1,849 nt of DNA from Escherichia coli (GCF_003334305.1 NZ_QOWS01000057.1), one strand, 5' to 3'. Counted from the first letter of the stretch, positions 1-1,556 are shown. The notes: generated from the letters alone by a model not told the origin. A program made the numbers and translations.

Positions 1-1095
1 ACCCAACAGACAAGAATCCAGACGGTATACCAGCCGGGAAGCTTCACGCCGCTCCTGAGAATCGAAACAGAGAATGGTGAACAGGCGAAGGCGCGGCACC
101 GTAGCCTGGCGGAGGTGTTGCAGGAGGACACGGGTGTGACGCTACCGGCGGAGCTGGCGGTGATGCTGGGGAGGCTGGAGCGGGAACTGCGGCAGGGCAG
201 CGTGAGTGAAGAAAGCCAGCAGTGGCTTGCGCAGTGCGGGCTGACGGCGGAACAGATGGCCGCGCAACTGGAGGCGGAATACATCCCGGAGAGGAAACTT
301 CATCTTTACCACTGTGACCACCGTGGGCTGCCGCTGGCGCTTATCAGCCCGGAAGGGGAAACGGCGTGGCAGGGGGAGTATGACGAGTGGGGAAACCTGC
401 TGGGCGAGGAAAGCGCGCAGCACCTTCAGCAGTCACTCCGTCTGCCGGGACAGCAGTATGATGAGGAGTCGGGGCTGTACTACAACCGCAACCGGTACTA
501 TGATCCATTGCAGGGGAGATATATCACCCAGGACCCGATAGGGCTGAGAGGTGAATGGAATCTGTATAAATATCCATTAAACCCTGTTCGGTTTATAGAT
601 TCTTTGGGTTTAAAATTCCATGTTAACGGTGATCCAAGTGATTTTAATCAGGCTGTTGAGTATTTAAAACAAGATTCACAAATGAAAGAAACTATAGATT
701 TTTTATCAAGCTCTGAAGAAACTATAAATATAGAGTATATTGAAGGAACCAATGTTAGATTTAATTCGAATAATATGGCGATATATTGGAATAGTAGAGC
801 ATCTTTATTTTGTTCAACTGAATTAAACTCGAAATCACAATCGCCTGCATTAGGTTTGGGACATGAGTTTGCTCATGCGCAGTATTACCTTCTTGATAAG
901 GAAAATTTCATGGCTCTTTTAAGCCGAACAGATAAGAAATATGAGAATAAAGAAGAGGCAAGGGTTATTACAATAATTGAATCGCGTGCGGCGAAAACTT
1001 TAGGTGAGTGTACCAGAGGAGCTCATAGTGGACTGCCTTTTTATCGGGTGGATGGACCGTTGCAGACGATGAAAATAACGGGTACGCCAGAATAG
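1..1095 (+). CDS. Rhs-family polymorphic toxin, 3' portion (5' end lies outside the window): conserved core C-terminus plus variable C-terminal toxin domain
   Basis: Frame 1 is open from base 1 to the TAG at 1093-1095; the track ORF at 115 only reflects the first in-frame start codon. The translation ([27 protein letters not shown]...[16 protein letters not shown]...[35 protein letters not shown]) matches, from memory, the conserved C-terminal end of E. coli Rhs core proteins, including the PxxxxDPxGL hallmark. Sampled 60-nt stretches are about 70% GC before ~550 and about 25% GC after, the classic core/extension architecture. Confidence 0.9.
532..612 (+). other. Rhs core/CT demarcation: DPIGL-(x)17-DSLGL (DPxGL hallmark followed by a degenerate second copy)
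   Basis: Codons 532-546 encode DPIGL and 598-612 encode DSLGL, separated by [17 protein letters not shown]. This parallels the DPxGL-(x)n-DPxGL arrangement at the core/toxin junction of enterobacterial Rhs proteins. The nucleotide composition switches to AT-rich within this segment (~550). Confidence 0.8.
613..1092 (+). other. Variable Rhs C-terminal toxin domain (~160 aa), putative zincin-like metallopeptidase with HExxH motif
   Basis: The AT-rich region after the DPxGL junction encodes [11 protein letters not shown]...[52 protein letters not shown].... HEFAH lies at 862-876. Glutamates about 23-35 residues downstream ([14 protein letters not shown]) could supply a gluzincin-type third zinc ligand. 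The fold assignment is an inference. Confidence 0.45.
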
Positions 1096-1100
1096 TGAGG
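1096..1100 (+). promoter_or_regulatory. Shine-Dalgarno-like sequence (TGAGG) for the downstream immunity ORF, overlapping the rhs stop codon
   Basis: GAGG at 1097-1100 lies 6 nt upstream of the ATG at 1107. The rhs stop TAG (1093-1095) overlaps this region, suggesting translational coupling. Confidence 0.5.
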
Positions 1101-1106
1101 TTTTTT

Positions 1107-1556
1107 ATGATGAAATATTTGATGGTTTTATTGTCTCTATTTTCTGGTTCGGTACTGGGGATGGGGCGAGTGAATGAATTGTGTGGAATAGATAGCGTGA
1201 AAACGATAGAGATAATTAATCTTCCATCGTATGTTACCACGTTAGTTCCGCTTAGCAAGGAAGGTCTTAATGAAATATACAGATATAAAGTGGTGGTGAA
1301 TGAAATTAGCGATCTTTATGCTGGTAAGATAATTGATTTATTGCAAATGAAGTATTTCAGAAAAGAAAAATATAACAATATAAGATGGGGGGTTAGTATC
1401 ATTTCGAAAGGTAATAATAAATGTGAAATTTATTTTGATGCTTTTGGTGAATGTGGAAGTGTGAATGGCATTAACGTGTGTTTTGAAAAAAATGAAATGA
1501 TAGGTTGGATTAAAAAAGAAATCCCTTTGCTGTCGCAAAAAATAGGTGGGCTTTAA
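1107..1556 (+). CDS. Putative Rhs immunity protein (RhsI-type downstream ORF) with a signal-peptide-like or membrane-anchor N-terminus
   Basis: A 149-aa ORF (ATG 1107, stop TAA 1554-1556) lies immediately 3' of the rhs toxin CDS on the same strand and shares its low GC content. This position and size are typical of cognate immunity genes. The N-terminus MMKYLMVLLSLFSGSVLGMG has a short charged n-region and a ~15-residue hydrophobic core. The start is ambiguous: GTG 1095, ATG 1107 or ATG 1110. Confidence 0.7.
   Translation: MMKYLMVLLSLFSGSVLGMGRVNELCGIDSVKTIEIINLPSYVTTLVPLSKEGLNEIYRYKVVVNEISDLYAGKIIDLLQMKYFRKEKYNNIRWGVSIISKGNNKCEIYFDAFGECGSVNGINVCFEKNEMIGWIKKEIPLLSQKIGGL

Follow-up and report, generated by a model that had tools for sequence, protein, structure and literature searches.

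The distal end of the Escherichia coli RhsH element very probably joins a GC-rich core to an AT-rich toxin/immunity module of other origin

A GC-rich core carrying a swappable AT-rich tip is a defining trait of Rhs elements and has been known since the 1990s. Where exactly does the core end and the exchangeable unit begin, and what does that unit carry? We addressed these questions at a 1,849-nucleotide (nt) stretch of Escherichia coli DNA (GCF_003334305.1, NZ_QOWS01000057.1; hereafter the window), which represents the distal (3′) part of RhsH in E. coli and contains the end of the rhs core, a C-terminal toxin, the immunity gene dsORF-h1 and an ISAs1-family (H-rep) insertion sequence (IS). The analysis leads us to conclude that the distal end of RhsH is, with high probability, a GC-rich core fused in frame between nucleotides 546 and 547 to an AT-rich toxin/immunity module of other origin. 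The element is already named and annotated, the RefSeq labels over the window being ‘RHS element core protein’, ‘RHS element protein dsORF-h1’ and ‘ISAs1 family transposase’. We take the second of these names to derive from the Rhs nomenclature of the Hill laboratory in the 1990s; the dsORF nomenclature is reportedly that of Wang, Zhao and Hill (1998). Many complete E. coli chromosomes match the window at 100% identity, and at least 80% of it is present in about 1,000 of 5,426 E. coli genomes.

All features of the window described here lie on the + strand. Frame 1 is open from nucleotide 1 to a TAG codon at 1093–1095, contains the motif HEFAH and ends in TPE. The 3′ end of the rhs core occupies 1–546 and is common to rhs paralogues. 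It was identified by the NCBIfam model NF041261 RHS_core (E=7.9e-119, a partial match, the window holding only the last ~204 residues), by TIGR03696 (84.6 bits, cutoff 32.5) and by Pfam RHS PF03527 (E=1.4e-14 on the window protein). The core closes with a first aspartyl-protease motif of the DPxGL type, DPIGL (residues 178–182, nt 532–546). The following 66 nt (547–612) encode a 17-residue spacer and a second such motif, DSLGL (residues 200–204, nt 598–612), in which Ser replaces the Pro of DPxGL. Directly after it come the toxin domain of 160 amino acids with its stop codon (613–1095) and, from 1107 to 1556, the 149-residue immunity gene dsORF-h1 (WP_000978828.1).

Base composition changes abruptly within this reading frame. 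The guanine plus cytosine (GC) content falls from 61.5% over 1–546 to 35.7% over 547–1092. At third codon positions (GC3) it falls from 74.7% in the core to 22.7% in the inter-motif stretch 547–612 (overall GC 33.3%) and 26.9% in the toxin (613–1092, overall 36.0%), indicating that synonymous sites have shifted, beyond an effect of amino-acid content alone. The immunity open reading frame (ORF), with 32.9% GC and 32.2% GC3, shares the low GC of the toxin, as the initial annotation of the window had proposed. A single-change-point likelihood scan of 1–1556 placed the change at nucleotide 553, with a support interval of 537–565 (two log-likelihood units) and a log-likelihood gain of 54.0, compared with a maximum of 8.1 in 200 shuffles. 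These values agree with the earlier placement of the switch a few codons past DPIGL, and the spot estimates on which it was based (about 70% GC in 121–180 and about 25% in 661–720) were computed as 70.0% and 23.3%. Composition is far from uniform across the junction, both GC and GC3 dropping sharply there. The start of the low-GC block stands as annotated; its end does not, since the block reaches 1632 rather than 1556 and is followed by a GC-rich island of 46 nt. The housekeeping flank on the same chromosome has 53.5% GC and the whole rhsH core 63.9%; core (62–64%) and cassette are both atypical for E. coli, in opposite directions.

Two kinds of rhs locus fix the position of the joint. The closest core that carries another toxin (L002), one unrelated to h1 and accompanied by an immunity gene with Sel1 repeats, is 99–100% identical to the window over 300–546, shows its first differences at 547, and is only 68% identical over 547–612, a similarity that reflects conservation at the protein level. 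Five other carriers of the h1 cassette (L008, from the enterotoxigenic E. coli (ETEC) strain H10407, and L012, L011, L009 and L005) have core tails that differ from the window by 5–25% in every bin from 16 to 546. Their last core difference lies at 534 or 546, and all five are 100% identical to the window over 547–612. Because L002 diverges where the five carriers converge, the joint is placed at 546/547, where the Leu codon ending the first DPxGL motif is complete, and it coincides with the compositional change point. The prediction that the breakpoint would fall inside the conserved junction was thus correct: core homology stops between the two motifs. A match restricted to 547–588 (H170) was considered as an inter-motif recombinant and ruled out, as it is a deletion to ISAs1.

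The cassette is not tied to one core allele. At least four further core 3′ ends carry it (L008/L012, L011, L009 and L005), with tails 75–95% identical to that of the window, and it occupies two chromosomal sites, the rhsE-H locus at narZ/pptA (L001) and the type VI secretion system 1 (T6SS-1) locus at yafV/ivy/fadE (L007, L008, L009, L011 and L012). Orphan modules were also found. In L005, 159 nt of K-12-like core precede the toxin and immunity genes directly after an ISEc1 transposase, with another full rhs gene downstream; in L010 and H69 all that remains of the toxin ahead of the immunity gene is its final 47 nt. Toxin and immunity gene co-occur in 1019 genomes, and in Hafnia. The several core types, the divergence of L002 at 547 and the orphan modules support the interpretation of the cassette in the initial annotation as a product of C-terminal displacement.

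Two further comparisons concern the mobility and variation of the cassette. The segments L001 10065–13900 and L007 6453–10288 contain the same rhsH element, 99.84% identical over 3.8 kb including the ISAs1 end, at narZ/pptA and at yafV/T6SS-1 respectively, which implies either that the element was relocated as a whole or that rhs or H-rep sequences mediated a rearrangement of the chromosome. The variant cassette of L009 (8934–10064) and L005 (5159–6288), aligned with 547–1678 of the window, is a mosaic: 100% identical over 547–666, 67–72% at 907–1086 in the C-terminal half of the toxin, 82–88% in the middle of the immunity gene and 92–98% over 1447–1678. Such a pattern suggests that toxin and immunity protein have diversified by co-evolution at their interface, or that a second recombination took place inside the cassette.

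Either the cassette or the core may have moved, and the direction of exchange given here is our interpretation of the sequences. Gene conversion among rhs core paralogues upstream of a fixed module would leave the cassette stationary and move the cores, so that the process would be core homogenisation and not C-terminal displacement. We regard this as unlikely, though with a real share of the probability. L007, L008, L009, L011 and L012 share the yafV locus, yet their core tails differ, and all but L009 also share the downstream remnant and ISAs1; possible donors are plentiful, with a median of 5–9 rhs-core matches per E. coli genome. The presence of the cassette at another locus as well, and in orphan modules behind other rhs genes and IS elements, nevertheless requires that the cassette itself move, and the compositional break points to separate origins whichever side moved last. 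A stationary cassette would differ from displacement in direction only; the boundary and the homologous recombination in the core would be the same.

The displacement of C-terminal regions (CT) and the orphan rhs-CT/rhsI model have been described before (PMC2935791, PMC3967940), and recombination between the core homologies of a main rhs gene and an orphan has been demonstrated experimentally in Salmonella (Koskiniemi et al. 2014, PMC3967940). The h1 cassette shares with that model its presence on different cores, orphans with a short core fragment, and recombination in the core. It differs in that the nucleotide boundary lies between the motifs, each cassette supplying the second one.

In the literature the core's 3′ boundary is the end of DPXG-(18)-DPXG (Jackson et al. 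2009, PMC2935791). The protein family models concur, as RHS_core NF041261 and TIGR03696 align through residue 204 (nt 612), and the initial annotation was right that protein similarity continues to about 612, some 66 nt beyond the compositional switch. Alignments obtained with blastn from other rhs cores likewise end at 587–615. Were the true boundary there, after the second DPxGL motif, the AT-richness of 547–612 would be incidental, a result of drift or local codon selection. We consider this highly improbable. The blastn alignments are only 59–68% identical over 547–612, a level attributable to protein constraint, whereas the same cores are 98–100% identical up to 546, and the cassette carriers are all 100% identical over 547–612. 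The N terminus of the h1 toxin follows the 547–612 sequence in 1021 of 1023 genomes, one of the exceptions being the H170 deletion to ISAs1, and this sequence was never seen on a different toxin. Among K-12 pairs, divergence begins 3 to 39 nt past the first motif. The exchange boundary is 66 nt (22 codons) upstream of both the predicted autocleavage site and the literature boundary; compared with the toxin as it would be released, the exchange unit has 22 additional codons and its own second protease motif. DPIGL had been annotated as the Rhs core/CT junction, which holds for the exchange joint; the conventional boundary and cleavage motif is DSLGL.

The position of the boundary was compared at 24 E. 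coli rhs junctions, comprising K-12 rhsA-D and their orphans together with junctions from other strains. The 300 nt upstream of the first motif have 50–62% GC at all 24. In the 66-nt inter-motif stretch the GC content varies between 33 and 62% and tracks that of the attached toxin. Pairwise identity of this stretch correlates with toxin identity (r=0.77) and not with core identity (r=0.25), and averages 99.9% for the same toxin on different cores compared with 67% for different toxins. In 7/7 pairs with near-identical cores and different toxins, divergence begins 1 to 39 nt past the first motif, and in no pair is it delayed until the second has ended; the rise in mismatches falls at +1 for rhsH and L002, at +15 for rhsB and either rhsA or rhsC, and at +39 for rhsA and rhsC, ybfO or the L006 orphan. 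Outside E. coli, a homologous cassette on an Rhs gene of Hafnia alvei shows the change point in GC 7 nt past DPIGL, and its spacer begins with the same unusual RGE as the h1 spacer.

The proposal that core and cassette have the same origin and that the GC shift reflects only the amino acids they encode (the YD-repeat shell being rich in Gly/Arg/Pro and the toxin in Lys/Asn/Ile) was rejected on the GC3 data as having next to no probability: amino-acid usage does differ, GC1 also falling from 69% to 43%, but GC3 falls far more (74.7% to 23–27%), the 22 codons at 547–612 encode a peptide conserved in all Rhs proteins and have AT-ending codons in the h1 cassette only, and inter-motif GC varies among cassettes in step with the toxin.

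Several degenerate junctions were observed. In H. alvei OZ061315.1 (L021:2985–3010) a frameshift or stop follows RGE within the inter-motif spacer, which is why the toxin is called there as a separate 170-residue ORF; an orphan rhs fragment lies 3′ of the immunity gene. An orphan rhs fragment of strain 3150 (L006:1345–1894), which lies downstream of rhsB-yhhH-yibA, has a K-12-type inter-motif sequence followed by a CT start, KFKVEGDRSAFDSAIEYLKQDDEMKK, related to the N terminus of the h1 toxin, and degenerates further on, with stop codons. This fragment is what is left of a related M91-type cassette attached to a different core. A partial E. coli Rhs protein (P0003) carries an in-frame deletion that fuses RGEWNLYK to EGTNVRF, with loss of the second protease motif and the toxin N terminus.

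What does the exchanged unit encode? The motif HEFAH (nt 862–876) of the toxin domain matches the HExxH zinc site, a zincin fold is predicted, and a candidate third zinc ligand probably lies in NKEEARV (about 946–966). The only Pfam match of the domain is to Peptidase_M91 and is weak (E=0.002–0.013 for the query); 9/16 toxin homologues match this family at E<=1e-3, the best at 6.6e-9. Homologues of residues 205–364 occur in Shigella Rhs proteins, in the H. alvei Rhs gene (the Hafnia homologues bear the RefSeq name ‘M91 family zinc metallopeptidase’) and in metagenomic Rhs-type proteins; others are small, metagenomic and mostly GC-rich, and have no recognisable Rhs junction. EExRV...E..AAKTL.E..R is invariant among the homologues, as is a stretch of 14 residues. 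A sequence search of the PDB with the toxin was empty at E<=10. Taken with the predicted fold, these features indicate that the toxin is a small zincin, a distant relative of Peptidase_M91 with a fold predicted to resemble that of botulinum-toxin light chains, and that it is probably proteolytic. It is much smaller (160 residues) than Peptidase_M91 (NleD) and other zincins resembling botulinum light chains, such as GtgA, NleC and anthrax lethal factor, and it scores weakly against the Pfam model. Unlike these effectors, it would be delivered by an Rhs/T6SS system and not by a type III secretion system, and it has an immunity partner; a bacterial target is expected from this pairing. A 2024 preprint on Shiga toxin-producing E. 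coli (STEC) O22:H8 noted ‘Rhs-Peptidase M91’ in silico and described none as characterised so far (bioRxiv 10.1101/2024.03.05.583533).

In ETEC H10407 (L008, NC_017633) HEFAH is mutated to HGFAH, a change of Glu to Gly, in a 5′-truncated rhs remnant with an intact immunity gene; the toxin seems to be in decay while the immunity has been kept. The reverse arrangement was observed at L011:6495–6943 (NZ_CP043414), where an intact full-length rhs gene with an h1 toxin 96% identical to that of the window is followed by a frameshifted dsORF-h1. This would be a toxin without working immunity, unless the frameshift arose in assembly or the cell is protected by another copy (the record contains two cassette matches).

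The immunity gene points to the compartment in which the toxin may act. It starts 11 nt downstream of the toxin gene, behind a GAGG Shine-Dalgarno sequence at 1097–1100, and its product has no match in Pfam or NCBIfam. The N-terminal sequence MMKYLMVLLSLFSGSVLG (1107 to about 1160) resembles a signal peptide and is, with four Cys residues, largely conserved across variants. The gene 3′ of the Hafnia toxin is a homologue of dsORF-h1 (31% identity, E=3e-21) with a classical signal-peptide-like start, MKLFLILIFFVSSQSYA followed by KN, and the product of the gene 3′ of a metagenomic toxin homologue also begins with a Sec-signal-like sequence. As the immunity protein looks Sec-exported, the toxin most likely acts in the periplasm of the target cell, where the exported protein would counter the protease. 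A comparable arrangement is known for the C-terminal metallopeptidase of VgrG2b (Tpe/Tpi), whose immunity protein PA0261 is periplasmic (PMC6899460). The h1 toxin would resemble it as a T6SS-delivered HExxH metallopeptidase paired with an immunity protein that appears to have a signal peptide, a likeness that would imply periplasmic toxicity. The h1 toxin differs in being carried on Rhs and not on VgrG; the VgrG2b domain showed no sequence similarity to it in the PDB search (E<=10) and was absent among its listed fold hits.

These elements can be assembled into a proposed sequence of events. A GC-rich rhs core, of which there are 5–10 paralogues per genome, is fused in frame to an AT-rich module spanning 547–1632 that supplies the second aspartyl-protease motif DSLGL with the cleavage site, the 160-residue zincin toxin and the immunity gene. 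Exchange would proceed by homologous recombination in the core upstream of 547, and every product would have the same joint because homology between paralogues stops at 546. Delivery of the Rhs protein would be through the type VI secretion system, and the pair of Asp motifs may cut after L204 (nt 612) and release the HEFAH metallopeptidase, as judged from Photorhabdus Rhs1, in which cleavage occurs after the second motif, whose Asp is catalytic (Jurenas et al. 2021, PMC8636562). Rhs1 likewise has two DPxGL-type motifs 17 residues apart, with the toxin directly after the second; the h1 protein, known here from its sequence, differs in that its second motif is DSLGL, with Ser in place of Pro. 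Finally, the Sec-exported immunity protein would neutralise the toxin, whose action is likely to be in the target periplasm. Put together, these points allow a tentative proposal: that the E. coli rhs exchange unit starts between the DPxGL motifs, and that h1 may be the first Rhs-borne miniature zincin of the botulinum-light-chain/NleD type to kill from the periplasm, countered by a Sec-exported, Cys-containing immunity protein.

Several points weigh against this account. The signal peptides were judged by inspection only, and the AlphaFold2 (AF2) model of the immunity protein has a predicted local distance difference test (pLDDT) score of 46.6 and is unusable. The carriers are largely near-clonal copies of one arrangement, 975/1023 being at least 99% identical, so independent exchanges are few, at about four or five core types. 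A frameshift interrupts the rhs gene in strain 13KWH46, and several copies of it at the yafV locus are truncated, with the immunity gene intact in those genomes, and the module is accordingly not always functional. A degenerate-codon search for the inter-motif peptide in 100,044 species-representative genomes found no donor of the cassette and gave one match, which was E. coli-like. This sole match (L017, JAIJJM010000683.1, ‘MAG: Collinsella sp.’, a metagenome-assembled genome (MAG)) is a contig of 1,670 nt, 99.94% identical to 103–1772 of the window, and almost certainly represents E. coli sequence placed in an actinobacterial MAG by faulty binning.

The surroundings of the module include vgrG and T6SS genes. 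In L001 (strain 13KWH46) the order is vgrG, the rhsE core (a pseudogene), dsORF-e4, ISAs1, two small ORFs, the rhsH core, dsORF-h1, ISAs1 and pptA/nhoA/narZ, so that vgrG lies ~8 kb upstream; the variant allele of L009 directly follows hcp-vgrG. Full-length, intact rhsH is annotated in NCTC9088, ECOR29 and O104:H4 C227-11. Downstream of the immunity gene, an AT-rich spacer (1557–1632) has at most one difference in L009, L005 and L010, where it runs into a complete rhs gene. In the window it meets the GC-rich island at 1633–1678 (68.8% GC), MSGKPAARQGDMT, which matches the opening 46 nt of the rhsH ORF (L001 8834–8879) at 97.8% identity. This island is what remains of a downstream rhs gene, truncated near codon 15, according to the alignment, by the left end of an ISAs1-family (H-rep) element (1674–1849). 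The terminus of that element, CAGGGAAAGATCA, is identical beside unrelated flanks in six other loci, and its annotated transposase ORF (MELKKLMEHIS) begins at 1817. The window had no match in Rfam; a promoter scan gave no more matches than in shuffles, no terminator-like site was seen, and internal repeats were limited to short matches at chance level.

The window provides a clean worked example of the classical Rhs signature. It shares the architecture and the compositional discontinuity described for E. coli RhsA-H, with a GC-rich core, an AT-rich ‘core extension’ and a downstream ORF, and nothing essential differs. Added here are the exact boundary at 546/547, the survey of 5,426 genomes and the predicted toxin fold. 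The additions are modest, and indicate a boundary between the protease motifs that is general in E. coli and an h1 toxin that is probably a small periplasmic zincin. Among complete E. coli genomes, about 19% carry an uncharacterised Rhs metalloprotease toxin of this kind; O104:H4 outbreak strains are among the carriers and have the gene intact. A boundary between the motifs matters for the delimitation of Rhs-CT cassettes in databases and for the design of chimeric toxins. If it is true, each toxin cassette would bring its own catalytic Asp and the residues N-terminal to the cleavage site, possibly co-adapted to the toxin.

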